Source of the DNA: Acidobacteriota bacterium
GTDB taxonomy: Bacteria > Acidobacteriota > UBA890 > WLXD01
Direction: 5' to 3'
DNA length: 64,000 nt
NCBI GenBank assembly: GCA_963666055.2
Contig: CAXWPH010000003.1
Span: 1-64,000, forward strand
The position numbers were made by a program, and so were the translations under genes. Positions 29,701 through 48,824 of this stretch are shown here, in pieces; the stretch's first letter is position 1, and every line of letters starts with the position of its first letter. The notes under the pieces were generated by a model. That model saw only the letters and a list, made by a program, of their open reading frames with translations, was not told the DNA's origin and ran no database searches.

Positions 29701-30201
29701 CGCGATCTAATACGTCGCCTGGAGTCGTTCGAGGACCGCTTGCGCGACGCTGCGGAGGCGGGCACGCCCGGCGAACAGAGCGGTCAGGGCGGTGCTGAAG
29801 AAACGGGCGCCGGGAACCGACGCCAGAACATGCCTGGCGGCTCGACATCGGGAGTCCCCGGCGCACGACAGTTCGCCCGAGAGTTCCGCGAGCGGGTGGC
29901 CGACGCCGAGGAATTGCGGGATCGGCTCGGCGTCGACGGTCTGCAAACTACCGACCTGGACACCGTCGTGGGCGCGATGCGTGATTTCGAGGAGCAGTTT
30001 CAGGGCACCGCGCGGGGGCTCGACGAGCTCAGCAGTGATGTGATCGACGGGTTGAAGCTGTTCGAGTTCTGGTTGCGGCGAGTGAGCCAGGCGGAAGCCG
30101 GCGTGCGACCTCAACTTACCGGGTCGGATCGTGTCCCCGAGGAGTACCGCAGCCTTGTCGAGGAGTATTTCCGCGCCCTTGCCCAGCAGGATTCACGCTA
30201 G
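26785..30201 (+). CDS. Large membrane-anchored beta-domain + coiled-coil protein (DUF4175-like)
   Basis: N-terminal TMs, DQPPTV..EDDYGL, long Q/E/R-rich helices, C-terminal VPEEYRSLVEEYFRAL. Confidence 0.75.
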   Translation: MPMKRSVVRKLATLQSIEYQRLLGIMRRVRYRWRLRLLLRGLALALIAALATVLLASWGLDTFRSRPWAVIALSGLTYAVLAYALYRFLARPLWRRVSDEQVALYVQEHTGVDAALVSAVEFGSPGQRPDNSQVSAQFVEKLVEEAVLRAPEIGFGTSVESSELRRMSGVLGAASMAVVAVALMNPAFLLDGARRLLTPFARGTVPAPYTIEVTPGNDEVARGGDQLITALLFGFDSDQVEISFKVGDGDWDRQSMVADSATGAHQFMMFRLSDDAEYFVEASGVRSLLYRLDVVDVPYVERIDLELIFPQYSGLSPQVIEDGGDIAALVGTRVRLQVTPTVDVPGGRLRIEWLAAGDGDPLVETLPLESGNDGLRVELEVLRSGYYRVELSDFDGILHEASSEYLIEVLADQPPTVAFDSPGRDVSVTSIEEVFTEVSAEDDYGLARVDIIYSINGGERRTVPLLQGSGADRRSLTAAHTFYLEEEELEPGDFIVYFARAQDNRAVAEAQTRSTDLYFLEVQSFDRRYQQADAGGAGGGGGRGGGLGLARRQREVVSATFKIARDADSIADQEMADDLEFLAGVENELREQVQQAQTQFGGLGSDEDSLRGIDYLAEASKALDEAAGELTGHDADGALPPEQRALQYLQRFEALFLDMQVSMNQGGGGGAAGDMSELEEMFENQADKLDNQYESVRRERQDETDNAVDEAMQRLTELARRQQQEIERQRAQGARAPNQGGGQARQRQIAEQAEELARELERLGRRNSQRDLQEAANRLREAADAMRRAAASGGDASASDSARALNDLQNARRLLDRNRDGRLDRDLRDAQQRIAEMREDQAAIENEVEALGGAGGRTQERIDDLFERKDRLTDDIRGLERNLDDMARESRGQQMAASRALQEAAEWVRDEKLADKVRYSKGVVQERDPRTARAFEQEISDGLASLEGLVDSAAENIERSPGERLADAVEDTRDLIRRLESFEDRLRDAAEAGTPGEQSGQGGAEETGAGNRRQNMPGGSTSGVPGARQFAREFRERVADAEELRDRLGVDGLQTTDLDTVVGAMRDFEEQFQGTARGLDELSSDVIDGLKLFEFWLRRVSQAEAGVRPQLTGSDRVPEEYRSLVEEYFRALAQQDSR

Positions 30202-30476
30202 CAGGCCGTGGTGGAAGTGAGGCGGGCCTGGCGACAGGGTCTTGCGAGGTGGAGGCAGGGAGAGAGGAGGAGGCGATGGCTACCGCATCGTTGACGACGA
30301 ACGACGCAGCATACGCGCGCCACCCCCTATCGCCCGGAGGGTTACGGCGATTTGGGGTCATCTGCGGTGTTGGCCTTCCTCGACGATGGCTAGGGCATCG
30401 CCAGTGTCAGGCCGCCTTGCATCTGACCCCAACTCGCCGTAACCAGGCCCGCCACACTTTCACCATGGCCTGCTAG
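30198..30476. mobile_element. 279-bp non-autonomous MITE-like structured repeat, full copy 1
   Basis: ~34-bp terminal inverted repeats CTAGCAGGCCGTGGTGGAAGTG.../...CACTTTCACCATGGCCTGCTAG; ~24 mismatches and no gaps versus copy 2 (counted by eye). Confidence 0.9.
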
Positions 30477-30481
30477 GCTGA

Positions 30482-30520
30482 CCTCGGTTAGACGTGTCGA
30501 AGGCCTCGGTTAGACGTGTC
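30482..30520 (+). repeat. 17-bp direct repeat CCTCGGTTAGACGTGTC x2 (period 22)
   Basis: Exact copies at 30482-30498 and 30504-30520. Confidence 0.85.
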
Positions 30521-30538
30521 CGGGTTGTTGCTTGCGAC

Positions 30539-31417
30539 TCAAATGCTGAGATCGTCGCTGTCCCAGCCGCGCTGCGCGATGAGTTGCCGGTAGGCTTTCA
30601 GGTGTTTCAGGGCATCGGGCTTTCGCCCCATGCGCTCGAGGACGCCGGCGAGGTTGAAGTGAGCATCGGCGTGGTCGGGATCGGCGAGCAGAGTTTCCCG
30701 GTAGGCGGTGTGCGCCTCCTTGAGACGCCCTAGGTCTTCCAGCGCTACGCCGAGGTTGAACAACGCTGTCAGGTCGGTGGGGCGCACTGCCAACGCTGCG
30801 CGATAGTGGCGCTCCGCTGCTTTCACGTCGCCCGACTCGTGTAGCAGTCGACCGAGATTGACGTGTGCATCGGCCGATTCAGGATCGGCCTCGAGCGCCC
30901 GACGGTACGCGTCTCGCGCCTCGCCGGGGCAGGCCATTTCGAGATCGCAGCCGATCTCGAACCAGTCGCGGGCCGGCAACGCGGGCTCGAGATCGGCGGC
31001 TCGTATGGCGGCGTCGTGAGCCAAGGGGGCAACCTGCTTGGCGAGCTCGGCGACATCGAAATCGAGCAACGCTTGCTTGGTCTCGGCGTCCCAGATCTCA
31101 CCGCCCTGCCGCACCACCACGCGCGCTCCATCCGCCTGCACGCGCACGCCGGTGAGCGAGCGCCCATCCGGTAGCTGGTGCTTGAGATTGGCAAGGGACC
31201 TGCGAACGCGAGCGAAAGGAACGCCGGCAGCCAACAGGTCGCGCGCCGTGCGCATGACTATCAGATCGGTAAACGAGAAGCGGTACTCATGCCGGGCGCC
31301 GCGCCGCGGGTTTACCAGCCCGGCTCGGGCCAGAGCACGCACTCGGCGTGGCTCGAGGTCGAGCACGCGGGCCACGTCGCTGGTGCCGTAGCCGCTTCGG
31401 GTAACCGGCTCGCTGAT
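30539..31417 (-). CDS. MerR-like HTH + TPR protein; start probably ATC 31417 (first canonical start GTG 31375)
   Basis: GYGTSDVARVLDL..YRFSFTDL, followed by TPRs (AHVNLG, ALFNLG, AHFNLA). Confidence 0.8.
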   Translation of the reverse strand: MSEPVTRSGYGTSDVARVLDLEPRRVRALARAGLVNPRRGARHEYRFSFTDLIVMRTARDLLAAGVPFARVRRSLANLKHQLPDGRSLTGVRVQADGARVVVRQGGEIWDAETKQALLDFDVAELAKQVAPLAHDAAIRAADLEPALPARDWFEIGCDLEMACPGEARDAYRRALEADPESADAHVNLGRLLHESGDVKAAERHYRAALAVRPTDLTALFNLGVALEDLGRLKEAHTAYRETLLADPDHADAHFNLAGVLERMGRKPDALKHLKAYRQLIAQRGWDSDDLSI

Positions 31418-31419
31418 GG

Positions 31420-32304
31420 CTATCTCTTCCTAGCCCGCTTGGTTGCGGCTTTCGCCTTGGTGGTCTTGCTGCGAGTCGATGTCTTGCGCTTGGCACCCTT
31501 GCGCCCGGTAGCCGCCGACCCTGCTTCGCCCGAGTACCCCGCGAGGCTGCTCTTGAGGGCCTCCATCAGGTCGATGATCTGCCCCTTGGGCTCCTCTTCC
31601 GGAGCCGCCGTGATCTCCTTACCCTCGACCTTTTGGGCGATGATCTTCTCGAGCCGCTCGGTAGCCGTGTCGCGGTACTGCTCGGGGCGAAACTCGTCGT
31701 TGGAGATCTGGTCGACGATCTGCATGGCCAGCTGGAGCTCGCTATCGTCGATCTCTGCGTCGCCGATCTCAATGTCATCGACGGCGCGGATCTCGCTGTT
31801 GTACCGCAGTTGCTGCATGATCAGCCCCTCTTGGAAGGGCCGGAGCAGCACCAGGTAGTTCTTGCCGCGCGCTGCGTACATCGCCAGCGCGGCGCGGTTC
31901 TTTTCCCGCATGACCCGGGCAAGCAACTGATACGGGCGTTCTCCGCCGGTGTTCGAGCCGAGGTAGTAGGCCTTCGCAAAGTGGATCGGGTCGACTTGGT
32001 CGAGCGGCACGAACTCCTTGATCTCGATGGCGTGCGTTGCCTTGAAGAGGATCTCCTCGAGCTCTTCCTGGGTGAAGGTGACGTACTGGCCCTTGGCGAA
32101 CTCGTAACCCTTCACCAGATCTTCGCGCTCCACCAGCTGGTCGTCGGTGGGGTCCCAGAAGCGCATGCGCACCCGCGAGCCCGTCTTCGGGTTGATCCAG
32201 TTGAGGCTGATCTTGGCGCTGGTGACAGTGCTTGAATACAGTCTTACCGGAATCGACACGAGGCCGAACGAGATTGTCGCTGTAGCCATTGCGCGCGCAG
32301 CCAT
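31420..32304 (-). CDS. ku: NHEJ DNA end-binding protein Ku
   Basis: ISFGLVSIPV, LVKGYE, IIDLMEALKSSL, basic C-terminal tail. Confidence 0.96.
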   Translation of the reverse strand: MAARAMATATISFGLVSIPVRLYSSTVTSAKISLNWINPKTGSRVRMRFWDPTDDQLVEREDLVKGYEFAKGQYVTFTQEELEEILFKATHAIEIKEFVPLDQVDPIHFAKAYYLGSNTGGERPYQLLARVMREKNRAALAMYAARGKNYLVLLRPFQEGLIMQQLRYNSEIRAVDDIEIGDAEIDDSELQLAMQIVDQISNDEFRPEQYRDTATERLEKIIAQKVEGKEITAAPEEEPKGQIIDLMEALKSSLAGYSGEAGSAATGRKGAKRKTSTRSKTTKAKAATKRARKR

Positions 32305-32330
32305 ACGAGTACTATAGCATTCGACACGCG
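32305..32330. promoter_or_regulatory. Probable bidirectional promoter with overlapping -10 boxes
   Basis: Minus strand TGC-TATAGT-6 nt-ATG(ku); plus strand TACTAT (32310-32315) and TAGCAT (32315-32320) before ligD ATG 32331. Confidence 0.6.
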
Positions 32331-34904
32331 ATGCCAGGGAATGATAAGGACGCACACTCGCGCCTAGCAAAGTACAGAAACAAGCGGCGTCAGCAGGAGA
32401 CTCCGGAGCCGTTTCCGACCGGTGACAAACGCGCCGGGGAGTTCGTGATTCATCTGCATGCGGCACGCCGCACGCACTACGACCTGCGCCTCGAGGTAGG
32501 CGGCGTGCTGCGCTGCTGGGCCGTTCCGAACGGCCCTTCGCTCGATACCGCCGACAAGCGGCTCGCCGTGCAAACCGAGGACCACCCGGTCGAGTACCTG
32601 GACTTCGAGGACGTGATCCCGGAGGGAAACTACGGCGCCGGGGCGATGATCGTGTGGGATCGAGGTCGCTGGGTGCAGCGCGAGGACGACCAAACAGGCG
32701 ACAACAAGCTGCTGTTCGATCTGTACGGCTACAAGCTCAGGGGGCGTTGGACCCTGGTGCGCACCAAACGCAATCCGAAGGAATGGCTGCTCATCAAGAA
32801 GGCCGACGGTTTTGCGCGCAGCGGAGCCGAAGCCGATCTGCCCGAGGAGTCGGTGTACTCGGGGCTCACCGTCGAACAACTCGGCGACGGCGGCGATCCG
32901 GCCGAGAGCGTGCGAGTCGAGATCGAGCGTTCCGGGGTGCCCTTGAGTCGCGTCAACGCGTCGAATCTGGACCTCATGCTGGCCAAGACGGCCGATGCTC
33001 CTTTTTCGCGCCGCGGATGGCTGTTCGAGCTCAAGTACGACGGCTACCGCCTCGTGGTGGGCGTGGATGATGGCCACGCCTTCCTACGCTATCGAAACGG
33101 GGGTGATGTGACCGAGATCTACCCGGATCTGATCGCGGCGCTCGCCACACTGCCATATCGGTCGCTGGTTTTCGATGGCGAGGTGGTGGTCCTAGACGAC
33201 GACGGTCGTCCGAGCTTCAGTCGGTTGGCCAAGCGAGCACGACTATCGCGCGCCGTGGAAATCCGCGCCGCAGCCCTGCAGCATCCGGCCACCTACTTCG
33301 TTTTCGACCTGCTCGAGCTCGACGGCTACGACCTGCGTGGCTTGCCGCTGTCCAAGCGCAAGGAGTTGTTGAGCCGCGTGGTCCCGCAGCGGGGCCCGGT
33401 GCGCTACGCCGAGCACATCGAGCGGCAAGGCGCGGAGCTTTTCGAGCAGGTTCGCAAGATGGGGCTCGAGGGGTTGATGGCCAAGCGCGGTGATTCCAAA
33501 TACCGAGCTGGCCGCTCGGATCACTGGTTAAAGATCCGTGCCGACCGCAACGTCGACCTGGTGGTCGTGGGGTACGTTCACGGCAAAGGGTCGCGCCGCA
33601 CGCTCGGCGCGTTGCTCGTCGCCGTCTACCATGAAGGCGAGCTGGTATACGTGGGAGGCGTTGGCAGCGGGCTTCGCGAGCGTGAGATCAATGAAATCCT
33701 GCCGCAGTTGCTGGAGCTGAGCGGCGGCGCGACGCCGCCACCGGTAGAGCTGCCGGCGCCCGGAACACGGCGTTACGCCAACATCCCCAAGCCCGGAGAA
33801 ACGGTCTGGGTACGCCCCGAGCTCGTCTGCGAGGTTCGGTTCAAGGAGATCACCCCAGACGGCCTACTGCGCCATCCGGTCTTCTTGCGCATGCGCATCG
33901 ACAAGCTGCCGGCGGAGTGCGACACGGGGCAGGCAGCCCTGGCTCATGCTCGGTTCTTCGGGGTCGGCGAAGACGATCCCACGCCCGCCAAGGCTGCGGC
34001 GTTCGACGCCTGCCGTACGGTGATCACCCGACCTGAGAAAGTGCTCTGGCCGGATGAGGGCTACACGAAGGGCGACCTGATCGACTACTACCGGGCGGTG
34101 TCGGAATGGCTGTTGCCTTATCTGGAGGATAGACCGCTGGTGCTCGACCGGTACCCCGACGGCATTGACGGCAAGTCGTTCTTCCAGAAGCACGCGCCGC
34201 ACTTCACGCCCGATTGGATCCGCACCGTGACCATCCACTCCGGATCCGGCGAGCGCGACATCGATTACTTCGTGGTCGACGACCCGGAAGGGCTCGTCTA
34301 CATGGCAAACGCGGCCGCTATTCCGCTGCACATCTGGTCCAGTCGGACATCAACCATCGACAACCCCGACTGGGCGATCCTGGATCTCGACCCGAAGGAG
34401 GCTTCGTTCGGCAGCGTCGTTCAGGTGGCTCGTGGGATCAACGAGCTATGTAAGCAAATCGGCCTGAGCGCCTACGCCAAGACGTCTGGCAAGACCGGAA
34501 TGCACGTGTTGGTTCCACTGGGCCGACAGGTTACGTATCAGCACGGTCGTATGCTGGCCGACCTGCTCGCCTTGATCGTTTCGAGGCGGTATCCGGAACT
34601 GGCCACGGTGAACCGCGCGCTCCACACACGTGGAGGCCGCGTGTATATCGATGCGGTGCAGAACGGCGCCGGCCGGCTATTGGTGTCGCCGCTGTGTGTG
34701 CGACCCTTCCGCGGCGCCACAGTATCGACACCCCTTCGCTGGAGGGAGGTGAACGCCAAGCTCGATATGCACCGCTTCACGATAAAGACGGTACCGGCGC
34801 GCCTGCGACGCATGAAGCAAGAGCCGATGCGGGCAATACTCGGCGAGCTTCCCGATCTCCTGGGAGCGCTCCAGTTACTGTCGGAGCTCGAGAATACCGA
34901 TTGA
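32331..34904 (+). CDS. ligD: DNA ligase D (phosphoesterase-ligase-polymerase)
   Basis: HAARRTHYDLRLE; ELKYDGYR; EGLMAKR; RYPDG, DLD, KTSGKTGMH. Confidence 0.96.
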   Translation: MPGNDKDAHSRLAKYRNKRRQQETPEPFPTGDKRAGEFVIHLHAARRTHYDLRLEVGGVLRCWAVPNGPSLDTADKRLAVQTEDHPVEYLDFEDVIPEGNYGAGAMIVWDRGRWVQREDDQTGDNKLLFDLYGYKLRGRWTLVRTKRNPKEWLLIKKADGFARSGAEADLPEESVYSGLTVEQLGDGGDPAESVRVEIERSGVPLSRVNASNLDLMLAKTADAPFSRRGWLFELKYDGYRLVVGVDDGHAFLRYRNGGDVTEIYPDLIAALATLPYRSLVFDGEVVVLDDDGRPSFSRLAKRARLSRAVEIRAAALQHPATYFVFDLLELDGYDLRGLPLSKRKELLSRVVPQRGPVRYAEHIERQGAELFEQVRKMGLEGLMAKRGDSKYRAGRSDHWLKIRADRNVDLVVVGYVHGKGSRRTLGALLVAVYHEGELVYVGGVGSGLREREINEILPQLLELSGGATPPPVELPAPGTRRYANIPKPGETVWVRPELVCEVRFKEITPDGLLRHPVFLRMRIDKLPAECDTGQAALAHARFFGVGEDDPTPAKAAAFDACRTVITRPEKVLWPDEGYTKGDLIDYYRAVSEWLLPYLEDRPLVLDRYPDGIDGKSFFQKHAPHFTPDWIRTVTIHSGSGERDIDYFVVDDPEGLVYMANAAAIPLHIWSSRTSTIDNPDWAILDLDPKEASFGSVVQVARGINELCKQIGLSAYAKTSGKTGMHVLVPLGRQVTYQHGRMLADLLALIVSRRYPELATVNRALHTRGGRVYIDAVQNGAGRLLVSPLCVRPFRGATVSTPLRWREVNAKLDMHRFTIKTVPARLRRMKQEPMRAILGELPDLLGALQLLSELENTD

Positions 34905-34934
34905 TCGTGGCGGCGGCCCCCTTCCCCGGCTCGA

Positions 34935-36522: not shown

Positions 36523-38065
36523 TTTGCCGGCGACAGAGCTGGGCGGCGCGTCGGACCTGGGGGTTCGCATGGCGCCTTTCGACGAGCACAACCAAGAGCT
36601 GGTCGCCAACGTCCATCCCCACGACTGGGCCAACCCGCAGCCAGCTGGCCGCTACAACCTCGTGGCTATCGGGGCGGGCACCGCAGGCTTGGTTTCGGCG
36701 GCCGGTGCGGCTGGGCTCGGTGCCCGCGCCGCGGTAATCGAGCGGCATCTGATGGGTGGCGATTGCCTCAACGTCGGGTGCGTCCCCTCCAAAGGCGTGA
36801 TCAGCGCGGCTCGCGCCTGGCATGCGGCGCGTCGAGCCAGCTCCGAGTTCGGCGGTCCCACCTGCGGCGATGATGCTGACTTCGGTGCTGCGATGGAGCG
36901 GATGCGTCGCCTGCGCGCCGGGATCAGCCACCACGACAGCGTTGAGCGCTTCGCTCGCCTCGGCGTCGACGTCTATCTCGGGCAGGCGCGTTTCACGGGT
37001 TCCGACACGATCGAAGTGGACGGCAGGCAGTTGCGCTTCCGTCGAGCGGTGATCGCCACCGGTGGCCGTGCAGCCGCACCCCCGATTCCCGGGCTCGACG
37101 AGATCGACTACCTGACGAACGAGACGATTTTCTCGCTGACCGAGCTTCCCGCCCGGTTCGGGGTGATCGGAGGCGGCCCCATCGGTTGTGAGATGGCGCA
37201 ATCATGGGCGCGTTTCGGCAGCAGGGTTGCGCTGTTCGACATAGCTGACCATGTGCTGCCGCGCGAGGATCCGGACGCCGCCGCGGTCGTTCAGGAGAGC
37301 CTGGTCAGCGACGGCGTTGAGCTGATTCTGAAAGCGCGCATCAACGCGGTCGCCGCCAGTGGCGACACGAAGCTCGTGCGCTACGAGCTCGACGATGGTG
37401 TGGCGCGCGAGATCGAGGTCGACGCGTTGCTCGTCGCCGTCGGCAGGAAGCCCAATGTGGAGGATCTGGGCCTTGACGCCGCCGGCGTCAACTATGGTGC
37501 ACGGGGTGTCGAGGTCGATGACTTCCTACGCACCAGCAATCGTCGCGTCTATGCGTGCGGCGACGTGGCGTCGCGATACCAATTCACCCATACGGCTGAC
37601 GCACAGGCGCGCATCGTTATCCAGAACGCTCTGTTCCACGGGCGCGCCAGAGCGAGCAAGCTGGTGGTGCCCTGGTGTACGTACACCAGCCCGGAGATCG
37701 CTCACGTGGGGATGTACGAATCTGATGCCCGCGCCGCCGGCCATGAGGTTACAACGATCACGATTCCTCTTTCGGAGGTTGATCGCGCCGTCCTCGACGG
37801 CGAAGCCCACGGGTTCCTGCGCGTGCACCACGAGAAGGGGCGCATTCTCGGAGCCACGATGGTCGCCGAGCATGCCGGGGACATGATCGGTGAGCTGGCG
37901 CTGGCGATCACCGCGGGTATCCGGCTTTCGCAGATCTCGGCAACGATCCACCCGTACCCGACTCAGGCCGAGGTCATTCGCAAGGTAGGGGATGCGTACC
38001 GCCGTACCGGACTGACGCCGCTGACCAAGAGACTGCTGCGGTTCTGGTTCCGCCTCTTCGGCTAG
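36515..38065 (+). CDS. Flavoprotein disulfide reductase (mercuric reductase/dihydrolipoamide dehydrogenase-like)
   Basis: GAGTAG, GGDCLNVGCVPSK, GGGPIG, HPYPT; no C-terminal Cys-Cys. Confidence 0.9.
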   Translation: MADLPATELGGASDLGVRMAPFDEHNQELVANVHPHDWANPQPAGRYNLVAIGAGTAGLVSAAGAAGLGARAAVIERHLMGGDCLNVGCVPSKGVISAARAWHAARRASSEFGGPTCGDDADFGAAMERMRRLRAGISHHDSVERFARLGVDVYLGQARFTGSDTIEVDGRQLRFRRAVIATGGRAAAPPIPGLDEIDYLTNETIFSLTELPARFGVIGGGPIGCEMAQSWARFGSRVALFDIADHVLPREDPDAAAVVQESLVSDGVELILKARINAVAASGDTKLVRYELDDGVAREIEVDALLVAVGRKPNVEDLGLDAAGVNYGARGVEVDDFLRTSNRRVYACGDVASRYQFTHTADAQARIVIQNALFHGRARASKLVVPWCTYTSPEIAHVGMYESDARAAGHEVTTITIPLSEVDRAVLDGEAHGFLRVHHEKGRILGATMVAEHAGDMIGELALAITAGIRLSQISATIHPYPTQAEVIRKVGDAYRRTGLTPLTKRLLRFWFRLFG

Positions 38066-38085
38066 CAGGTCGTGGTGGAAGTGTG
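38062..38085 (+). repeat. Solo end of the CTAG element
   Basis: CTAGCAGGTCGTGGTGGAAGTGTG on the reductase stop codon. Confidence 0.9.
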
Positions 38086-38091
38086 CCGAGC

Positions 38092-40015: not shown

Positions 40016-40711
40016 ATGGTCGACTCATGTCCCGATCCTGCCGAGGTTGGAGCGGCGCAGGAAAGTGCCCACATAAATTCAGGCGAGCAGTCGGAGGAGC
40101 TACAGGGACTGGGAGCAAAGCTGGCGGAGCGATTGGAGCTGACGCGGGCGCTGACGTTTGTCGATCTCGAAACGACCGGCCTCGACGTGTGCACCGCTCG
40201 GATCGTCGAGGTGGCGCTAGTTCGCGTCGAGCCGACCGGGTCGGCCGCGAGCTTCGCGACGCTGATCAATCCAACTATCTCGATTCCCGCTGAGGCCACC
40301 CGGGTACACAGCATCTGCAACGATGATGTGGCCGATGCTCCGACCTTTGCCGAGGCGGCTGCCACCGTAGGCAGCTGGCTCGCCGAGTCCGATCTTGGGG
40401 GCTACAACCTGGCGCGGTTCGACCTGCCGTTGCTCGACGCAGAGTTCGAGCGAGCCGGCCACCCTTTCGCATGGGACGAGGCGCGGATCCTCGACGCGTG
40501 CGCGATATTCAAACGCATGGAACGCTGAGATCTTGCCGCCGCCTATCGCTTCTACTGCGCCTCCGAGCTCGAAGGGGCCCACGCCGCCGGTGCCGATGTT
40601 CGTGCCACGATCCAAGTGGTGCTCGGCCAACTGGATCACTATCCGGAACTGCCCCGCGACGTTGAGTCGCTGGATGCCCTCTGGCGTCCACGGAGTGACA
40701 AAGGCTACTAG
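40016..40711 (+). pseudogene. DEDDh 3'-5' exonuclease (DnaQ-like) with in-frame TGA at 40526-40528
   Basis: VDLETTG, GYNLARFD; frame continues past TGA as DLAAAYRFYC..GAHAAGADV (ExoIII) to TAG 40711. Confidence 0.85.
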
Positions 40712-40726
40712 CAGGCCGTGGTGTGG
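40708..40726 (+). repeat. Solo end of the CTAG element
   Basis: CTAGCAGGCCGTGGTG(TGG). Confidence 0.85.
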
Positions 40727-40872: not shown

Positions 40873-41985
40873 ATGAACTTCCAATTCGTTCGATCCGGCT
40901 CACGCTACTCAATCTCCGTCGTGTTGCTGGCCGCGGGTGCCTTGGCGATGCTGTCGGCGGCAGGATGTGCCCGACAGTTGGCGTCGCAGGAGGCATCGAC
41001 GACGACGCCGACGTCTGCGCCTTCGTTGGCTGACACCGATACCGTGCTTGCAACGATCGACGGCGCGCCACTCCGTATGGGAGATCTGGACGACGCGGTC
41101 AACGATCGCCTGGCGGCGCTGGCGTTTGAATACAGCACGCAGCGATTTCAGCTTCTCGAAGCAGGCCTGAAGGGCGCCGTGAGGCGTCGGTTGCTCGATG
41201 CCGAGGCCACTCGTCGCGGCACCACCACGGAAGAGATGGTGGAGGCCGAGATCACCTCGGGGATTCAGGTTACCGCCGAAGACGTGAACGCCTGGCACCA
41301 GGCCAACAGTGCTCGCCTCCAGGGACAGTCACTGGAGGCTCTGCGTCCGGCGATCGAGGAGTTCCTCTTCGAGCAACTACAGGAAGAGGGCACTGAAGCT
41401 TTCACCGCTGAGCTGGCGGCGGATCGCGACGTTACCGTGCTGCTGGAGCCGGTTCGTGCCGATATCGAGACCGAGGGCTACCCGACCCTCGGTCCCGCTG
41501 ACGCGCCGGTCACGCTCGTCGAGTTCTCGGACTTCGAGTGCCCATTCTGCAGCCGTTTTACGCCGACCGTGGACCAGGTCAAGGAAGCGTACGCTGGCCG
41601 GATCCGCTTGGTGTACCGGCAGTTCCCGCTGCGCGAGATCCACCCGAACGCGCAGAAGGCCGCCGAGGCGTCGCTGTGCGCCGAGGAACAAGGGAAGTTC
41701 TGGGAGCTGCACGATCTGATGTTCGCAGAGCAGGACGCCCTGAGCGTCGATGAGCTCAAAGGCAAGGCGGGGCGGCTCGACATGGATACCCAGGCGTTCG
41801 CGATTTGTCTAGATTCAGACCGCTACGTGGATACAGTCCAGGCTGACCTGCGCGCCGGTCAACGTCTGGGTGTCAACGGCACCCCGGCCGTGTTCGTCAA
41901 CGGCCGTCCGATCCCGGGCGGGGCCGTCCCGTTCGAGACGATTGCCAAGATCATCGAGGAGGAGCTCGATCGAGCCGGACGCTAG
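40873..41985 (+). CDS. DsbA-family thioredoxin-fold protein with N-terminal helical domain, probable lipoprotein
   Basis: SAAGC lipobox-like; EFSDFECPFC, GVNGTP. Confidence 0.92.
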   Translation: MNFQFVRSGSRYSISVVLLAAGALAMLSAAGCARQLASQEASTTTPTSAPSLADTDTVLATIDGAPLRMGDLDDAVNDRLAALAFEYSTQRFQLLEAGLKGAVRRRLLDAEATRRGTTTEEMVEAEITSGIQVTAEDVNAWHQANSARLQGQSLEALRPAIEEFLFEQLQEEGTEAFTAELAADRDVTVLLEPVRADIETEGYPTLGPADAPVTLVEFSDFECPFCSRFTPTVDQVKEAYAGRIRLVYRQFPLREIHPNAQKAAEASLCAEEQGKFWELHDLMFAEQDALSVDELKGKAGRLDMDTQAFAICLDSDRYVDTVQADLRAGQRLGVNGTPAVFVNGRPIPGGAVPFETIAKIIEEELDRAGR

Positions 41986-42006
41986 CAGCCCATGGTGGAA
42001 GTGTGA
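41982..42006 (+). repeat. Solo end of the CTAG element forming the whole intergenic spacer
   Basis: CTAGCAGCCCATGGTGGAAGTGTGA runs from the DsbA stop to the next start codon. Confidence 0.85.
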
Positions 42007-42962
42007 TGGCAACCCTTCGGGCGATCCGGGTGATCGATTCGCACACTGGCGGTGAGCCGACGCGTCTGGTCCTCGATGGTGCCCCCGACCTCGGGTCGGG
42101 CACCGCGGCCGAGAGGCTGGCCCGCTTTCGCGACCATCACGACGACTTCCGCTCAACCGTGGTCAATGAGCCGCGCGGGTTCGACGCGATGGTCGGCGCA
42201 GTGCTTTGTGAGCCGTCCTCCGTCGACTGTGCCGCCCAGGTGATCTTCTTCAACAACGTCGGCTATCTGGGAATGTGTGTGCACGGCACCATCGGGGTGG
42301 CCGTGACCCTGGCGTCGATCGGCCGGCTGGTGCCCGGCGCGCATCGATTCGAGACCCCAGTCGGGGTCGTAGGGGTCGAGCTTCGGAACGATGGCCAGGT
42401 TGCTGTGGAGAACGTAGTCAGCTACCGGGTAGCGAGCGGTGTCGAGGTCGCAGTTGCCGAGATCGGCTCGGTGCGCGGCGATGTCGCCTGGGGCGGCAAC
42501 TGGTTTTTTCTGGTCGAAGAGCACGGCCAGCGCCTCGAGGCCGACAACGTGGTGGCGCTCACCGACTATTGCTGGGCGATTCGCAAGGCACTGCAAGCCG
42601 CCAGCGTCGTCGGCGACGATGGCGCCGAGGTTGATCACATCGAGCTGTCCGGGCCGCCGCCAACCGCAGCCACGGACAGCAAGAACTTCGTTCTCTGTCC
42701 GGGCCGCGAGTACGATCGCTCCCCGTGCGGCACCGGCACGAGCGCGAAGATGGCGTGTCTGTGGGCCGACGGCAAGCTGCTGCCCGGGCAAGCCTGGAGG
42801 CAGGAGGGCATCTTGGGCAGCCGCTTCGTGGGGAGCATAAGGGAGGTAGAGGGTGGTGTCTTGCCTACAATCGTCGGCACGGCCTGGGTGACGGGCGAGA
42901 GCACGTTGCTGGTTGGCGACGATGACCCGTTCGGAGCCGGGATTTGCGCCACTAGGCCATGA
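42006..42962 (+). CDS. 4-hydroxyproline epimerase / proline racemase family
   Basis: DSHTGGEPTR, FFNNVGYLGMCVHG, GGNWF, DRSPCGTG. Confidence 0.92.
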   Translation: MATLRAIRVIDSHTGGEPTRLVLDGAPDLGSGTAAERLARFRDHHDDFRSTVVNEPRGFDAMVGAVLCEPSSVDCAAQVIFFNNVGYLGMCVHGTIGVAVTLASIGRLVPGAHRFETPVGVVGVELRNDGQVAVENVVSYRVASGVEVAVAEIGSVRGDVAWGGNWFFLVEEHGQRLEADNVVALTDYCWAIRKALQAASVVGDDGAEVDHIELSGPPPTAATDSKNFVLCPGREYDRSPCGTGTSAKMACLWADGKLLPGQAWRQEGILGSRFVGSIREVEGGVLPTIVGTAWVTGESTLLVGDDDPFGAGICATRP

Positions 42963-44245
42963 ATCCGGTGCGCGACGTTGTCGTGGTGGGCGGGGGCGCC
43001 GTCGGCGTCTGCTGCGCCTACTTCCTGTGGCGCGACGGTCATGCGGTAACGCTTGTCGAACGTGGCGACGGCAGCGACGGCGCCTCGCACGGCAACGCCG
43101 GCATGCTCGTCCCGAGCCATGTCGTGCCGCTTGCGGCCCCTGGGGTGATCGGCCAAGGGCTGCGTTGGTTGTTCAAGCCCGATAGCCCGCTGTACATTCG
43201 CCCGCGCCTCGATGGCGAGCTGTTTCGGTGGCTTTGGCGTTTTCGGGCCTCGTGCACCGAGGCCCATGTGTGCCGTTCGGTCCCGGTGCTGCGCGACCTG
43301 ATGCTGGCGAGCGTTGACCTGTTCCGCGATCTCGCTCAGCTGGACGGCGTCGAGGTGGACCTACACGAGAACGGCATCTTGATGCCCTACGAAACGGAGG
43401 CTGGCAAGCGCCACGCTGTCAAGCACGCCGCGACACTGCGGGCCGCCGGTCTCCAGGTCGACGTGCTCGATGGGCGCGATCTCGGGGAGCTCGAGCCTGC
43501 CCTGCGCACGCCAGCGATCGGCGCCGCGTACTTTCGCCAGGACTGCCACGTTGACCCGTCGAGCTTCGTACGCACCCTGGCCGCCTACTTGCGGGCCCAC
43601 GGAGTCGAGATGCTCTCGTCGACCGAGGTCGCCGGATTCGACCGGCGAGGCGATCGAATCCATGCAGTTCGGACGCGCGATCAACTACTCGCAACCCGAT
43701 CGGTGGTTCTCGCGGCGGGTGCGTTCACCCAGCCACTAGGGGCTGCCGTGGGCGTGCGCGTTCCAGTACAACCCGGCAAGGGATACAGCGTGACGCTTCC
43801 TCGAGGCAGCTGTGGCCTGCGCATCCCGTTGCTCCTGCACGAGGCGGGGGTGACGGTGACGCCGATGAGCGACCAGCTGCGCTTCACAGGTGGGCTGGAG
43901 TTGGTGGGCCTCGATCGTTCGATCAAGCCGAGGCGAGTCGCCGCCATTCTCCGGCAGGTCACGGCGTATCTGCCGGAGACCGACACCGAAGCGATCGTTG
44001 CCGCCACGCATCGAGACCCGAATGCGGTCGCCCCAGCTATGTGGACAGGGTTTCGCCCCTGTAGCCCTGACGGGTTGCCGATCATCGGGAAGGCACCGGG
44101 GCTCACCAACCTGACGCTGGCTACCGGTCACGGCATGCTGGGGCTAGCGCTGGCGCCGATCACCGGGAAGTTGGTAGCGCATCTGGTATCCGGCGAGCCG
44201 ACCCCGATCGGTGTGACCGCACTCGATCCGGCACGGTTCGCATAG
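42959..44245 (+). CDS. D-amino acid dehydrogenase family (likely D-hydroxyproline dehydrogenase)
   Basis: GGGAVG, ASHGNAG, PGKGYS, GFRPCSPDGLP, GHGMLG; start overlaps the epimerase stop. Confidence 0.88.
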   Translation: MNPVRDVVVVGGGAVGVCCAYFLWRDGHAVTLVERGDGSDGASHGNAGMLVPSHVVPLAAPGVIGQGLRWLFKPDSPLYIRPRLDGELFRWLWRFRASCTEAHVCRSVPVLRDLMLASVDLFRDLAQLDGVEVDLHENGILMPYETEAGKRHAVKHAATLRAAGLQVDVLDGRDLGELEPALRTPAIGAAYFRQDCHVDPSSFVRTLAAYLRAHGVEMLSSTEVAGFDRRGDRIHAVRTRDQLLATRSVVLAAGAFTQPLGAAVGVRVPVQPGKGYSVTLPRGSCGLRIPLLLHEAGVTVTPMSDQLRFTGGLELVGLDRSIKPRRVAAILRQVTAYLPETDTEAIVAATHRDPNAVAPAMWTGFRPCSPDGLPIIGKAPGLTNLTLATGHGMLGLALAPITGKLVAHLVSGEPTPIGVTALDPARFA

Positions 44246-44277
44246 TCGCCAACGCCGGCCGCGCCGACGGGGGCGAC

Positions 44278-44301
44278 TGTATACAATGTTCAGAATACAA
44301 T
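44278..44301. promoter_or_regulatory. GntR/FadR-type operator-like palindrome TGTATACA plus a second ATACAAT half-site
   Basis: AT-rich TGTATACAATGTTCAGAATACAAT in a GC-rich background. Confidence 0.45.
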
Positions 44302-44352
44302 TCTCAGGAAGGCCGGGATTGCCACCCCTATTTCGTTCCCGCCGGAGATGCA

Positions 44353-45711
44353 GTGAGAGTGAACGCGGACGGACGGTGGCGAGCGGCGTGGCGCGTCCTG
44401 GTGATGCTCGCGCTACTGGTCTCGGCGACGCCGGCACAGTTTCCGGTGTGGGCCGCCACGGCGCCACCCCAGGAGGCGGACCCGGACGGCACATCAAGGC
44501 CGGGGCCCGCGCTGCGCATCTTCCTCGATTGTGAGCGTCGCTGCGACTTCGACTATCTGCGACGCGAGGTGGCGTTCGTCAACTACGTGCTCGATCGTCG
44601 CGACGCCGATGTACACGTGCTCGTGACGAATCGGCGGACGGGTGCTGGAAACGAGTTCAGCCTCCAATTCATCGGCATCGACGAGTTCGCTGATGAGGTC
44701 GATACCCACGTTTTCACTACCTCGGACACCGATACGGACGACGAGGTGCGGAGGGCGCTCGGTAGCGTACTGACGCTCGGTCTGGCGCCCTATCTGTTGC
44801 GCACGCCGTTGGCCACCCAGATGCGCACCGCGCACGATGCCCCATCGACGTCGGGACCGATGGCGGCCACGCCGGACGAGGACCGGTGGAACTTCTGGGT
44901 GTTTCGCGTCGACGCCAACGCTTCTCTGCGAGGCGAGGAACGCCAGTCATCGCGCCAGGTCGAGGGCGACATCAGTGCGCGGCGGGTGACCGAAGGCTGG
45001 AAGATCTTCGTCGGCGTCGATGGTGAGTACGACGAGCGCAACTTCGAGTTCGATGATGGCGAAGAGCTCAAGAGCGTCGGGCGGGAATTCGGGTTCGGCG
45101 GCCAGGCGATCAAGAGTCTCGGGCCGCGTTGGGGCATCGGTGTGGGGATGGCCGGTGCTTCGTCGACGTTCTCCAACCTCGATCTGTCCAGCCGGGTAGC
45201 GGCGGCGCTCGAGCACAATCTCTTTCCGTACGATGCGTCGTCGCAGCGGCTGTTGACGCTGACCTATTTCGCCGGCGTAACACGCTACATCTTTCGCGAG
45301 GAGACGATCTTCGGACGGACAGAGCAGACGCTGGTCGACCACGGGCTGCTCGTCGCCCTCGAGCTCAATCGCCCATGGGGTGAGGCTGGCTTCACGCTCG
45401 AGGCTGCTCACCTGATCAACGATCCGGGAAAACACCGAGCCGAGATGCGCGGCCAGCTCGACTTCCGGGTCAGTCGCGGACTCAGGCTGAGCGTTTCTGG
45501 CAGGGCGTCGCTGGTCCGCGATCAGATCTTCCTGCCGGCTAGCGGTATCACCGACGAGGAGATTCTCCTGTCTCGCCGCGCCGTCGAAACCGATTTCCGG
45601 TATCGTGTCGGCTTCGGCGTGAACTATACATTCGGCTCGATCTTCAACAACGTCGTCAACCCGCGATTCGCCGGCTCGAGTCGAGGCTTCCATCGGATTC
45701 GGCGACGTTAA
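44353..45711 (+). CDS. Hypothetical exported protein, probably outer-membrane beta-barrel
   Basis: Signal-like N-terminus; amphipathic beta-strands; C-terminal YTFGSIFNNVVNPRF. Confidence 0.7.
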   Translation: MRVNADGRWRAAWRVLVMLALLVSATPAQFPVWAATAPPQEADPDGTSRPGPALRIFLDCERRCDFDYLRREVAFVNYVLDRRDADVHVLVTNRRTGAGNEFSLQFIGIDEFADEVDTHVFTTSDTDTDDEVRRALGSVLTLGLAPYLLRTPLATQMRTAHDAPSTSGPMAATPDEDRWNFWVFRVDANASLRGEERQSSRQVEGDISARRVTEGWKIFVGVDGEYDERNFEFDDGEELKSVGREFGFGGQAIKSLGPRWGIGVGMAGASSTFSNLDLSSRVAAALEHNLFPYDASSQRLLTLTYFAGVTRYIFREETIFGRTEQTLVDHGLLVALELNRPWGEAGFTLEAAHLINDPGKHRAEMRGQLDFRVSRGLRLSVSGRASLVRDQIFLPASGITDEEILLSRRAVETDFRYRVGFGVNYTFGSIFNNVVNPRFAGSSRGFHRIRRR

Positions 45712-45792
45712 ACGGTAGCTGACGAGTTGGCTCCGCTACTCGCCCGCGCTGCCTGCACGCCGGTGCGTTAGCTCGCCGGCGTATCGTTGCCG

Positions 45793-46263
45793 CTACATCC
45801 CGAGGTCCGTCAGGCCGGGATGATCTTCTGGCCGTGCTCCGGGCGCCTCCCAGTGGAACCGTCGGTCGGACTCTTGGATTGGCACGTCGTTGATGCTCGC
45901 CTCCCGCCGCCTCATGAGGCCGGAATCGTCGAACTCCCACTGCTCGTTGCCGTAGGCCCGGTACCAAGTGTCCAAGCTATCATGCCATTCGTATTGGAAG
46001 CGCACGGCGATGCGGTGATCGCCGTATACCCAGAGCTCCTTGATCAGCCTGTAGTCGAGCTCCTTGGCCCATTTGCGCTGCAGAAATGCGCCGATCGCCT
46101 CGCGGCCCTGGAGAAACTCGGCGCGGTTACGCCGCTTGCTGTCCTCGGTATAGGCCATGCACACGCGACCGGGATCGCGCGTGTTCCAGGCGTTCTCGGC
46201 GATGCGCACCTTGCGCACGGCGGAGTCGAAATCGAAGGGCGGTGTGATCGGCACGGCGGTCAT
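45793..46263 (-). CDS. DUF1348 / NTF2-like protein
   Basis: [33 protein letters not shown]. Confidence 0.9.
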
Positions 46264-46329
46264 GGGGCTTTCTCTGGCTCTGTGCGGGCGACCTTCCCGG
46301 CCTCCCTCTTTTCGGGTCGACGCCCGATG

Positions 46330-46357
46330 CTAGCAGGCGGTGGTGGAAGTGTGGCGG
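46330..46357 (+). repeat. Solo end of the CTAG element in a divergent intergenic region
   Basis: CTAGCAGGCGGTGGTGGAAGTGTGGCGG. Confidence 0.88.
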
Positions 46358-46524
46358 CGCCAAGGGTAACGACGACTTGGAGTCACTTGCGGCGCCGTCT
46401 GCCGCGCTACTGCTTCTTGCCTCGGTCGGTTTCGTGAGGCGCGCCCAGCTGATAGGTTCGGTTCTCGAATTCTCCGGGTCAGTACGACACGGACCGTTCT
46501 TTCCGTATACCAGGAGACTCAAGC

Positions 46525-47931
46525 ATGGCCAGACTCACGCCTGATCCCAGCTTCTACCCGTCGCCCAAGGATGCTGCGAAGGCTGATCCGGAGGGGCTCG
46601 CATACGTTTCGTTGCTCAATTGCAACGACGACGGCAAGCCAGATGCCATCGGCGTTGTCGACGTCAATCCCGATTCCTCGGACTACGGGAAGCTCATCAG
46701 CCAGGTGGACATGTCGAGCGCCGGCGACGAGCTACACCACTTCGGCTGGAACGCCTGCAGCTCGTGCCTGTGCCCGTATGCGCCGCATCCGCATATGGAG
46801 AGACGCTATCTCGTGGTGCCGGGCATCCACTCGTCGCGCATCCACATCCTCGATACGCAGCCGGATCCGCGCAATCCGAAGATCATCAAGGTAATCCAAG
46901 CTGAAGAGCTGGCCGAGAAGACCGGTTACAGCGCTCCGCACACGGTGCATTGTGGCCCCGACGGGATCTATATCAGCGCCCTCGGCAATGCCGATGGCGA
47001 GGGTCCGGGTGGCATCTTCACCATGGATCACGAGACCTTCGAGCTCGGCGGCGCTTGGGAGGCCGATCGTGGCCCGCAGGAACTTGCTTACGATTTCGGC
47101 TGGCATCTCGGCCAGGACGCGATCGTCACCAGCGAGTGGGGCACCCCCAACATGGTCAGTAGCGGGCTCAATGCCGAGCTGTTGCTGGCCGGCAAGTACG
47201 GTCACGGGCTGCACTTCTGGGATCTGAAGACCCGCTCGCATGTGCAGGCGCTGGATCTCGGTGCCGAGCAGCAGATGGTGCTGGAGGTGCGCCCGGCGCA
47301 CGATCCGGCTCACGCGTATGGCTTCGTCGGTGTGGTGGTGTCGATCGAGGACCTGTCGGCCTCGATCTGGCTGTGGCGCAAGGGCGAGGGTAACGGCGAT
47401 GGCCCTTGGAGCATCAAGAAGGTGGTGACGATCCCGGCGCAGCCGGCCGATGCGGATGACCTGCCCGAGTTGCTCAAGGGCTTCGGCGCGGTGCCGCCGC
47501 TGGTTACCGACATCGACCTGTCGGTTGACGACAAGTTCCTCTATGTCTCGTGCTGGGGTATCGGGGAGTTCCACCAATACGACGTCAGCGACCCCGACAA
47601 CCCCAAGCTCGTCGGCAACGTCAAGCTCGGAGGGATCGTCAGCCGGACGCCGCATCCGGCCAAGCCGGATCAGCCGCTCAACGGCGGGCCGCAGATGGTC
47701 GAGGTGAGCCGCGACGGCAAGCGTGTGTACTTCACCAACTCGCTGTATTCACCGTGGGATGCACAGTTCTACCCGGACGGGATCCAAGGGTGGATGGTGA
47801 AGCTGGATGCTGATCCGAACGGCGGCATGGAGCTTGATCTACGGTTCCTGATGGAGACTGGAGGAATGCGCTCGCATCAGGTGCGGTTGGAAGGAGGCGA
47901 CGCGTCTTCGGACTCGTATTGCTTCAGCTAG
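46525..47931 (+). CDS. Selenium-binding protein SBP56 / methanethiol oxidase family
   Basis: DELHHFGWNACSS, PHTVHC, SEWGTP, GGPQMVE, WDAQFYP, GGDASSD. Confidence 0.93.
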   Translation: MARLTPDPSFYPSPKDAAKADPEGLAYVSLLNCNDDGKPDAIGVVDVNPDSSDYGKLISQVDMSSAGDELHHFGWNACSSCLCPYAPHPHMERRYLVVPGIHSSRIHILDTQPDPRNPKIIKVIQAEELAEKTGYSAPHTVHCGPDGIYISALGNADGEGPGGIFTMDHETFELGGAWEADRGPQELAYDFGWHLGQDAIVTSEWGTPNMVSSGLNAELLLAGKYGHGLHFWDLKTRSHVQALDLGAEQQMVLEVRPAHDPAHAYGFVGVVVSIEDLSASIWLWRKGEGNGDGPWSIKKVVTIPAQPADADDLPELLKGFGAVPPLVTDIDLSVDDKFLYVSCWGIGEFHQYDVSDPDNPKLVGNVKLGGIVSRTPHPAKPDQPLNGGPQMVEVSRDGKRVYFTNSLYSPWDAQFYPDGIQGWMVKLDADPNGGMELDLRFLMETGGMRSHQVRLEGGDASSDSYCFS

Positions 47932-47944
47932 CAGGCCGTGGTGG
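47928..47944 (+). repeat. Solo end of the CTAG element containing the GTG start of the next gene
   Basis: CTAGCAGGCCGTGGTGG. Confidence 0.85.
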
Positions 47945-48549
47945 CCTGGGCGGCGCTGTTCGCTCTGGGCGCGTTTCACGGCATCAACCCGGGTATGGGT
48001 TGGTTGTTTGCCGTAGCGCTGGGAATGCAGGAGCGCCGCCGCGCGGCGGTGTGGCGGACGCTCCTGCCGCTTGCCGTCGGCCATGCCTTTGCGGTGGCGG
48101 CGGCGCTGATGCTAGCTGTCGCGCTCGGGGTGGTGCTGCCGCTCGGAACGCTGAGGCTGATCGTCGCGGCGCTGCTGATCGGTTTCGGTGCGTACAAGCT
48201 GGTGCGGTCGCGGCATCCACGATACGGCGGCATGCAGATGTCGCAGTGGAATCTTGTGGTGTGGTCGTTTCTCATGGCATCGGCTCACGGCGCCGGGTTG
48301 ATGGTGGCACCGTTGCTCTTGGGCGCCGGAGGCCGCTCTGCGATGGACATGCCCGCCACCGCTGGCGCTGCCGTCGGACTCATGGCGGCGCTGGTGCACA
48401 CGGCGGGCTATCTGCTGGTGACTGGCGTGGTGGCGGTGATCGTCTATGAGTACTTCGGCGTTCTGTTTCTGCGCCGTGCTTGGATCAACCTTGACCTGAT
48501 CTGGGCCGTGGCGCTCGTGCTTACGGGTGTGGCTACCCTGCTGATCTAG
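47938..48549 (+). CDS. His-containing integral membrane protein downstream of SBP56
   Basis: GAFHGINPGMGWL, AVGHA, ASAHGAG, LVHTAG; about six TMs. Confidence 0.8.
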   Translation: MVAWAALFALGAFHGINPGMGWLFAVALGMQERRRAAVWRTLLPLAVGHAFAVAAALMLAVALGVVLPLGTLRLIVAALLIGFGAYKLVRSRHPRYGGMQMSQWNLVVWSFLMASAHGAGLMVAPLLLGAGGRSAMDMPATAGAAVGLMAALVHTAGYLLVTGVVAVIVYEYFGVLFLRRAWINLDLIWAVALVLTGVATLLI

Positions 48550-48824
48550 CAGGCCGAGGTGGAAGTGTGACGGGCCTGGCGACAGGGTCGTGCGAGGCGG
48601 AGGCAAGGAGAAAGGAGGAGGCGATGGTTACCCCATCGTCGACGACGAACGACACAGCATACGCGCGCAACCCCCTATCGCCCGGAGGGTTACGGTGATT
48701 TGGGGCCATCTGCGGCGTTGACCTTCCTCGACGATCGCGGGGGCATCGCGAGCGTCAGGCCGCCTTGCATCTGGCCCCAACTCGCCGTAACCAGGCCCGC
48801 CACACTTCCACCACGGCCTGCTAG
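48546..48824. mobile_element. 279-bp non-autonomous MITE-like structured repeat, full copy 2
   Basis: Same length and terminal inverted repeats as 30198-30476. Confidence 0.9.

Follow-up and report, generated by a model that had tools for sequence, protein, structure and literature searches.

What a CTAG-ended repeat of 279 bp that occurs twice in one Acidobacteriota contig is, and what its fold is for, is the question raised by the window analysed here, a stretch of 64,000 nucleotides (contig CAXWPH010000003.1) from a source genome that is 95.7% complete (G000). A sequence-only reading had described two gap-free copies at 30198-30476 and 48546-48824 of about 91% identity, each closed by a terminal inverted repeat of about 34 bp around two arms that look like diverged, inverted copies of one module: The coordinates are right, the gap-free alignment differs at 24 of 279 positions (91.4% identity), the terminal repeats match in 31 of 34 and 32 of 34 bases, and the arms are 56% identical in copy 2. 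The parts of both copies, with the scores of model R1 for the modules, are as follows:

30198..30476, + strand, full MITE copy 1, 279 bp including both CTAG
30198..30231, + strand, left 34-bp terminal repeat of copy 1
30232..30335, motif strand +, arm 1 module of copy 1, 65.4 bits
30339..30442, motif strand -, arm 2 module of copy 1, 103.5 bits on - and 33.2 on +
30390..30393, no strand, internal CTAG in the arm 2 loop of copy 1, target of nested insertion in other copies
30443..30476, - strand, right 34-bp terminal repeat of copy 1
48546..48824, + strand, full MITE copy 2, 279 bp including both CTAG
48546..48579, + strand, left terminal repeat of copy 2
48580..48683, + strand, arm 1 module of copy 2, 73.6 bits (arm in the R1 training set)
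48687..48790, - strand, arm 2 module of copy 2, 93.5 bits on - and 27.8 on + (also in the training set)
48791..48824, - strand, right terminal repeat of copy 2

The proposed stable branched fold is likewise borne out, with folding z-scores of -9.6 for copy 2 as DNA, -9.9 for copy 2 as RNA and -8.8 for copy 1 as RNA, and with none of 200 shuffles equally stable in the test of both copies. The compensatory changes fared unequally: The pair T30358-A30426 versus C48706-G48774 (element positions 161 and 229) recurs throughout the genome, as C-G in 78 and T-A in 4 of 86 full copies, whereas the possible second pair, G30388-C30402 versus C48736-G48750 (positions 191 and 205), is not supported, as the double change occurs in only 1 of 86 copies and the cross-family structure pairs 191 with 199 and 205 with 185. 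Assembled contigs from two runs span both junctions of copy 2 without differences. A promoter and terminator scan of its interior returned no promoter-like site and one weak terminator-like stem, and in two metatranscriptome runs the organism is barely present and the element almost uncovered. The window yields no Rfam match at gathering score (the best loose match is a plant miRNA hairpin, 27.5 bits versus 168) and, in agreement with the earlier statement that it holds no transposase, no match to the five families searched, PF01609, PF05598, PF01797, PF13751 and PF13358.

The 279-bp repeat is a small non-coding MITE that inserts at CTAG. It is short, non-coding and multicopy with 34-bp terminal inverted repeats; the source genome contains 86 full copies among 118 paired-end elements below 330 bp and about 467 family ends, and of 25 further genomes from the order 20 also have the family. 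Empty single-CTAG sites, which the sequence-only reading had named as a sign of mobility, exist in relatives: The site of copy 1 is a single CTAG in G001, G003 and G004 and that of copy 2 in G004, while the G002 orthologues of both copies are part-deleted. Among 44 elements of G002, 8 have both flanks aligned to the source genome, of which 5 correspond to a 4-base empty site and 1 is filled, and in the source genome two copies are nested in the internal CTAG of another copy, both of their junctions being intact. The elements are thus shown to insert at CTAG and to leave a second CTAG behind as net gain. On the choice between a 2-bp TA and a 4-bp target duplication, junctions that deviate from CTAG lean to the TA type by 10 to 1 (111 A pairs of the source genome) and 7 to 0 (12 C pairs), but by 5 to 4 in 58 related IS copies. 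At two G002 sites the empty site in the source genome lacks TA, yet the filled site has the left CTAG; for one of them the outgroup G003 reads CTGC, and the other has no aligned outgroup. Composite elements of 552-560 bp are dispersed in G002, so total length is not fixed. Viral contigs gave no match to the end pattern.

The search for a transposase gene with the same termini led to an autonomous element in G011, where an insertion sequence of 1505 bp in four identical copies matches the consensus end over 21 bases. Its transposase combines DUF772 with a weak DDE_Tnp_1_6 match, and its best hit, NF033551 (IS1182), reaches 158.6 bits with a cut-off of 270, so that the partner is IS1182-like rather than a filed IS1182 member. 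It shares CTAG-flanked ends with the IS1182 and IS5 families (NCBIfam NF033551, NF033581), and most of 62 related IS loci examined end in similar CTAG-flanked repeats. Other candidate partners in the source genome were rejected: The eight-copy IS5 has unrelated ends and a TTAA target, the single IS630 matches a sister end type instead, and 12 long end pairs (>330 bp) show by eye no transposase-like frame. The ends also speak against a RUP-type, IS630-derived MITE, as they match the IS1182-like element and it is the sister types D, L192 and L193 that resemble IS630, and a REP/REPIN system with a RAYT finds no PF01797 (HUH/Y1) match in the genome.

Non-autonomous mobility, as the sequence-only reading had proposed, is shown by empty sites, nesting and matching IS ends, whereas its picture of a stand-alone family is not upheld: At least 11 end types surround one common core, and the MITE represents one of them. 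The same two-arm module lies inside all of these, including elements matching IS1182-like, IS5 and IS630 elements; across the 11 types, the nearest IS ends show 1 mismatch in 17 for IS1182-like, IS5 and one IS630 type. Families A, B, C and D of the source genome share the core at 277-280 bp, broken or nested copies excluded. Its fold is conserved across families, and the core is covarying and strand-specific: 92% of cells are paired, 25 of 33 pairs have changed on both sides, and the pairing score is 0.595 versus 0.178 for shuffled (a control that ignores relatedness) and at most 0.128 for slid alignments. The G·A loops are nearly constant (G36·A68 in 37/37, A37·G67 in 35/37, G29·A75 in 35/37, G39·A65 in 36/37), position 30·74 holds C·A in 21 cases and A·G in 14, and a conserved G·U occurs in 27/37. 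A kink-turn reading of the module was rejected, as the module has one base too many for the kink-turn consensus and its columns 23-25 covary with 80-82, which does not fit either. In the literature outside subscription journals we found no account of a core common to several IS end types.

The core also keeps its distance from the end. The interval from CTAG to CAAGG is 57-58 bases in 159 of 163 A arms, 19/20 B, 18/18 C and 4/4 D arms and in 5/5 other Acidobacteriota, and 57 bases in 77 of 90 Binatia modules, 2/3 from Vicinamibacterales and 4/4 in G318/G360; forms with one arm and with two agree in the spacing, and so do Acidobacteriota, Binatia and a third group. The 57-base spacing to CTAG is not seen in the module-bearing repeats of G329, G355, G348, G373, G316 and E. 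coli.

The reading we favour, to which we give an even chance, is that of a CTAG MITE that an IS1182-like DDE transposase probably mobilises in trans; the folded core is predicted to serve as a recognition site whose distance from the end is fixed, and it likely helps the elements to move. The transposase would bind the outer ~17-21 bases of each end, one strand would fold back as single-stranded DNA or RNA, and the two ends would thereby pair with each other where a long helix begins; some five turns along this helix, a widely conserved factor may bind the bulged, G·A-rich module, which would raise the rate of excision, reinsertion or survival. The two inverted arms would supply each strand with one correctly folded module, and landing on TAG stops leaves the upstream gene intact. 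What selection would favour is a lineage that goes on moving, rather than single resident copies, which look free to decay: Conserved module sites have no deficit of singleton changes (0.31 vs 0.39 per site, p 0.43), common alleles are somewhat fewer there (0.13 vs 0.26 per site, p 0.07, not significant), and both G002 orthologues have lost parts. Several points count against this reading: The matching transposase was not found in the source genome and four genus mates, R1 finds no module within the scanned IS loci, only in neighbouring elements, and our search found no factor that binds the core. Moreover, Watson-Crick covariation in palindromes can come from template switching without selection, and the spacing could persist by common descent if indels are few. 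The composite elements of G002 and the module-bearing repeats that do not show the 57-base spacing also weigh against it.

The gene context bears on the first alternative, in which the core forms part of the upstream gene's transcript and acts as RNA in its 3' tail, where it would soften the harm of insertion by shielding from Rho or ribonucleases or by binding a host RNA-binding protein, so that copies persist to move again; we consider this unlikely. None of the 86 full copies overlaps a called gene past its stop, and 42 of them supply the TAG stop itself, versus 20% of other non-genic CTAG sites (p 2e-9). In the window, the left TAG of copy 1 (30199-30201) ends an upstream 1136-aa DUF4175-like gene and that of copy 2 (48547-48549) a 203-aa gene without Pfam match, and six end remnants, absent from the earlier reading, lie beyond the two full copies:

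13965..14006, - strand, end remnant whose CTAG contains the stop codons of a DoxX-like gene and a fatty-acid desaturase gene, which are convergent
38062..38091, + strand, end remnant, at the TAG that terminates a pyridine nucleotide-disulphide oxidoreductase gene
40708..40723, + strand, short end remnant
41982..42010, + strand, end remnant, at the TAG that terminates a DsbA-like gene
46330..46359, + strand, end remnant
47928..47943, + strand, short end remnant at the TAG stop of an SBP56 gene

Genome-wide, the family end word follows 116 of 633 C-TAG stops. The stop adjacency of the full copies speaks for a role in RNA, although the CTAG target together with the purging of in-gene insertions would also produce it. 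Element orientation follows co-directional transcription 41 to 10, which also fits a role at the RNA level, and it still follows the genes 10 to 4 where these run against GC skew; in convergent gaps the elements are oriented in line with GC skew (16 to 2), in divergent ones they are not (3 to 8). One-arm Binatia modules lack a replichore pattern (66/120, p 0.97), which led us to reject lagging-strand insertion and favours RNA, and beside 3' ends they prefer the transcribed strand 33 to 17 (p 0.03); yet in co-directional gaps Binatia modules are antisense in 21 of 55 (p 0.10) and the one-arm derivatives of the source genome split 14 to 12, both on crude gene calls. The conserved G·U also favours RNA, as does the C·A/A·G exchange, which is typical of sheared RNA pairs, whereas a regulatory RNA would not need a fixed distance to a DNA cut site.

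The second alternative, that these are plain MITEs with an inherited core, an old element that received new ends by recombination and drift while fold-back repair keeps the stems and nothing reads the core, strikes us as quite improbable. Copies are indeed mosaic (325 of 561 site pairs show all four combinations) and decay by deletion, singleton changes are uniform, and hybrid copies with unlike left and right ends exist, so that ends could swap without a change in length. Fold-back repair, however, would remove mismatches, and here it is the unpaired G·A positions that vary least, next to stems that turn over; the module is kept amid AT-rich sequence in distant genomes, and the share of full-length copies among paired-end elements below 330 bp (86/118) also stands against it. 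Least probable of all is a separate, core-reading enzyme (REP/RAYT-like or another single-strand route) that moves all elements while the IS-like ends mimic or assist: Unrelated ends with the same CTAG target and spacing, the failure to find a cognate transposase in the genus and the two G002 sites without TA would fit, but no Y1/HUH transposase was found in the 95.7% complete source genome, the ends closely track specific IS ends, replichore bias is absent, and later conversion or precise loss can account for the two odd sites.

Returning to the favoured trans-mobilised MITE, we compared it with known repeats, as far as the excerpts of the sources cited here describe them. MITEs are presented as ends plus decayed filler, and their mobilisation is called an open question (PMC2229807). 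Type II MITEs such as RUP with IS630-Spn1 (PMC2229807, PMC10969869) are likewise non-coding and intergenic and form a stable fold-back, with IS-matching terminal repeats and a TA-containing target; our element differs in that it is GC-rich, branches into two inverted arms, has IS1182-like ends and has its core in common with IS5- and IS630-ended elements, and according to the review RUP shows no further signature of structure or function (PMC2229807). Caulobacter CIR and Bacillus bcr1 have similar two-armed or cruciform-like predicted folds (PMC2229807, PMC3184786); bcr1 keeps its fold by compensatory changes and differs by 5-bp direct repeats, CIR differs in lacking a closing terminal stem, and the excerpts, compared by description only, report for neither a core across IS end types. 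ERIC/IRU/RU-1, with MITEEc1_IS630 named in PMC11602168, is also a TA-flanked fold-back repeat co-transcribed with its neighbours, and it influences mRNA stability depending on orientation, which counts for the RNA alternative (PMC2229807). In 4 of 13 ERIC copies of E. coli K-12, AAGG, a 3-bp pairing and RACGC stand in register (background 1 in 72,800 bases); ERIC differs in its 127 bp, single arm, other apical part and a module much closer to the end, the best copy reaches E 0.72 with R1, and R1 gave no match at E 0.05 or better across the K-12 chromosome. Homology of the core with ERIC is therefore suggestive only. In Geobacter metallireducens, Gmet_R1001-R1024 appear in a 2009 supplement as '24 predicted short RNA elements' with no role assigned there (PMC2700814): Inspection of the reverse strand by eye finds GCCTTG (CAAGGC) in 9 of 24 rows, with CGTTG (CAACG) at the mirror position in 5 of these, around a GGCGTA-type apical palindrome, while length (~113 bases) and the single arm differ and the legend draws no link to transposon ends or other phyla.

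Tentatively, and with somewhat more doubt than belief, many MITEs of bacteria, perhaps with ERIC and the short repeats of Geobacter among them, may form one superfamily that is defined by a folded single-strand signal and not by the ends; a conserved host or element-independent factor would bind the core at a set distance from the cut site, and the element could ride any available CTAG-targeting transposase (IS630, IS5, IS1182-like). If so, there would be a single-stranded, structure-read step in DDE transposition. Here it is the filler that is conserved and the ends that can be exchanged; with a module of 105 bases, a constant spacing of 57 bases and a candidate transposase to name, the idea can be tested with few constructs, and if ERIC shares the module, the same question could be addressed in E. 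coli. For the organism itself, a family with so many ends, at so many of its C-TAG stops, shapes the genome.

The window holds two copies of a 279-bp, CTAG-ended MITE, which we call the A family:

30198-30476, copy 1 (site 1)
30481-30521, short tandem duplication directly after copy 1, single in the related genome G002
48546-48824, copy 2 (site 2)
8947-11600 (-), arginase-family paralogues in tandem
8947-9396 plus 9468-10178 (-), the downstream paralogue, broken across two frames

As the sequence-only reading had described, the copies align without gaps (24 of 279 bases differ), and each is closed by a terminal inverted repeat of 34 bases, matching at 31 and 32 positions, respectively. They fold more stably than shuffled sequences (z -8.8 to -9.9), and the element, which that reading did not recognise, has no match in Rfam. 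It had also proposed two compensatory changes: the first is real, the pair being C-G in 78 and T-A in 4 of the 86 full copies of the source genome, G000; the second, given as possible, is not supported, its double change occurring in one copy alone and its bases pairing with other partners. Contigs from two runs span both junctions of copy 2 with zero differences, so that copy 2 is not an assembly artefact.

Empty single-CTAG sites, which that reading had proposed to look for in relatives, were found for both insertions: at site 1, a single CTAG lies at the stop in G001, G003 and G004, and at site 2, G004 has one CTAG, G003 has GTAG and G005 a TGA stop. Part-deleted copies lie at both sites in G002; both insertions are therefore older than the G000/G002 split. 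Among 30 G002 loci compared with G000, 2 are filled, 17 empty or otherwise different and 11 without orthologue; in a stricter test of 44 G002 elements both flanks aligned for 8, five of which show the 4-base site and one of which is filled. Within G000, 14 ends adjoin the internal CTAG of another copy, and both junctions are visible in two copies nested there. The A-family element is mobile and targets CTAG, with a duplication of 2 or 4 bases. At two G002 loci (L391, L407) the empty G000 sites are CTGG and CTCG, lacking TA; the filled sites carry CTAG at their left junction and the word of the empty site at their right one. In seven dispersed G002 composites (L444-L447, L450, L453, L463; 552-560 bp in six cases, 459 bp in the other), the arm 1 loop of an element with another end type, B, hosts a nested A-ended element, with the same junctions throughout. 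At G000:C11:160026-160400, five left ends follow one another every 83 bp, the trace of either tandem amplification or successive nesting events at the internal CTAG.

By our own codon-usage gene calls, 42 of the 86 full copies supply the TAG stop of the upstream gene, as do 20% of the remaining non-genic CTAG sites; 41 copies run along and 10 opposite to co-directional genes. TAG is the stop codon of 1485 of the 4089 called genes (36%), and in 633 of these it is part of a CTAG.

The 24-base A end has 467 matches (≤6 mismatches) in G000 (5.73 Mb, 64% GC), versus 5-10 for each of three shuffled patterns; they form 130 pairs (86 of 260-320 bp, 32 shorter, 12 longer) and leave 207 ends unpaired. 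Of the 25 other genomes of the order, 20 contain the element by a BLAST-type search, at about 279 bp and 71-74% identity, versus none of five genomes outside the order. Any two full G000 copies differ at a mean of 18.6 sites, and the copies are mosaic: for 325 of the 561 common-site pairs, all four combinations occur among the 86, whose strongest linkage is between the two terminal repeats. A change at one of positions 165, 169, 170 or 171 is present in 62 of 64 younger-subfamily copies (2 intact versus 12.8 expected), and arm 1 of this subfamily shows a similar one-change pattern at positions 113-117. Both tracts, 165-171 and 113-117, belong to the 3' strand of the folded module, and 16 of 19 full G002 copies differ there as well. 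The pattern may reflect linkage over short tracts, a mutational hot spot or selection that favours weakened copies.

A DUF772 search of 26 genomes of the order yielded four identical 1505-bp elements in G011, whose left end is identical to the A-family consensus across 21 bases. Their transposase frame (L035:1241-2745) terminates on the TAG of the right-hand CTAG, and its stop codon thus comes from the target site. The protein is IS1182-like, scoring below the model cut-off; relatives in other phyla have similar CTAG-flanked ends. Neither G000 nor the four other genomes of its genus yielded this transposase. Judging from the end match, the G011 transposase would mobilise the A family. DUF772 matches number 146 in G007, where, as at L131, L138 and L153, IS5, IS630 and IS1182-like elements are stacked at the terminal CTAG of module-bearing MITEs (L053, L269, L276, L279). 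G000 itself has eight near-identical IS5 copies with TTAA targets (C2:350365 and seven other places), a recent burst unrelated to the A family.

Each two-arm element carries the module twice, inverted. In 37 arms chosen for diversity, 92% of cells are paired and 25 of 33 pairs have changed on both sides; the structure score is 0.595 versus at most 0.128 for slid controls, which is not a formal test, since the structure derives from the same alignment and the shuffles ignore kinship. The signal of the module sits in its loops: four G·A oppositions are kept in 35-37 of the 37 arms, and a further one is C·A in some arms and A·G in others. There are 66 G·U cells versus 21 A·C cells, or 39 versus 21 without the conserved wobble, and the covariance model of the module, R1, scores about three times higher on the motif strand than on the complement. 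From this asymmetry and the loop signal we infer that the fold has meaning on just one of the strands, in the form of ssDNA or of RNA. Singleton changes are spread evenly over conserved and variable sites, and common alleles at conserved sites are about half as frequent (p 0.07); together with the broken state of both G002 orthologues, this fits weakly with selection on mobile lineages. One-arm modules of Binatia, counted at 80 loci that make up most of 120 matches, lie on the sense strand in 34 versus 21 cases (p 0.10), and in 33 versus 17 where they adjoin 3' ends, with no replichore pattern; the module may have a role at the RNA level.

The same core is borne on many ends. A profile search of G000 detected 294 modules, and 111 elements with two arms. 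Two good A ends flank 86 of these elements; the others include 9 of type B, 6 of type C and 2 of type D, which are 277-280 bp long with ends unlike A, as well as hybrids. Across the fetched loci the ends sort into 12 clusters and, as two of these represent the same end, into 11 types. The nearest IS end has 1 mismatch in 17 for three types, namely an IS1182-like, an IS5 (passing the NF033581 cut-off) and an IS630 type, and 3 for a second IS630 type; for seven end types no fetched IS comes closer than 5. Arms are 50-82% identical between families and 51-61% within one element. Of 301 genomes of the phylum, 11 contain the exact module pattern, including 3 that lie outside the order (control matches, 0). 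R1 detects the module in 7 of 61 genomes from another phylum and 120 times in one Binatia genome, with zero matches in E. coli K-12 and three other genomes. Binatia elements are one-armed with IS630-like ends, labelled by resemblance; the remaining elements elsewhere are mostly one-armed with non-CTAG ends. In Binatia genome G313 (L222, L253-L267), many copies have a short GTAG-type palindrome that resembles REP inserted within the module, mostly directly after TGAC.

The main reason for linking the core with events at the element end is its fixed spacing. The distance between the first base of CTAG and the module's CAAGG word is 57-58 bases in 200 of 205 G000 arms and in 5/5 other Acidobacteriota, and 57 in 77 of 90 Binatia modules, 2/3 Vicinamibacterales and 4/4 in G318 and G360; the intervening sequences are unrelated, and one-arm and two-arm forms share the spacing. 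Against this ruler stand the non-CTAG families and ERIC, the E. coli fold-back repeat, which have no 57-base spacing to a CTAG, and the dispersed 552-560-bp composites of G002.

In the reviews consulted, MITE cores are presented either as decayed sequence or as bearing motifs particular to a family (PMC2229807, PMC10969869, PMC3184786, PMC4853749, PMC11602168, PMC2996986), and the literature searched gave no account of a core common to several end types. Two partial precedents are E. coli repeats with the ERIC2 primer word, in which 4 of 13 copies have the outer module motif but the best copy reaches only E 0.72 with R1, and the 24 'predicted short RNA elements' listed in a Geobacter genome paper, among which the word CAAGGC, read by eye, appears on the reverse strand of 9 (PMC2700814). 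The 279-bp element is almost certainly of an ordinary kind, a new MITE family. The core on exchangeable ends at fixed spacing is real and unexplained, and it is open to testing.
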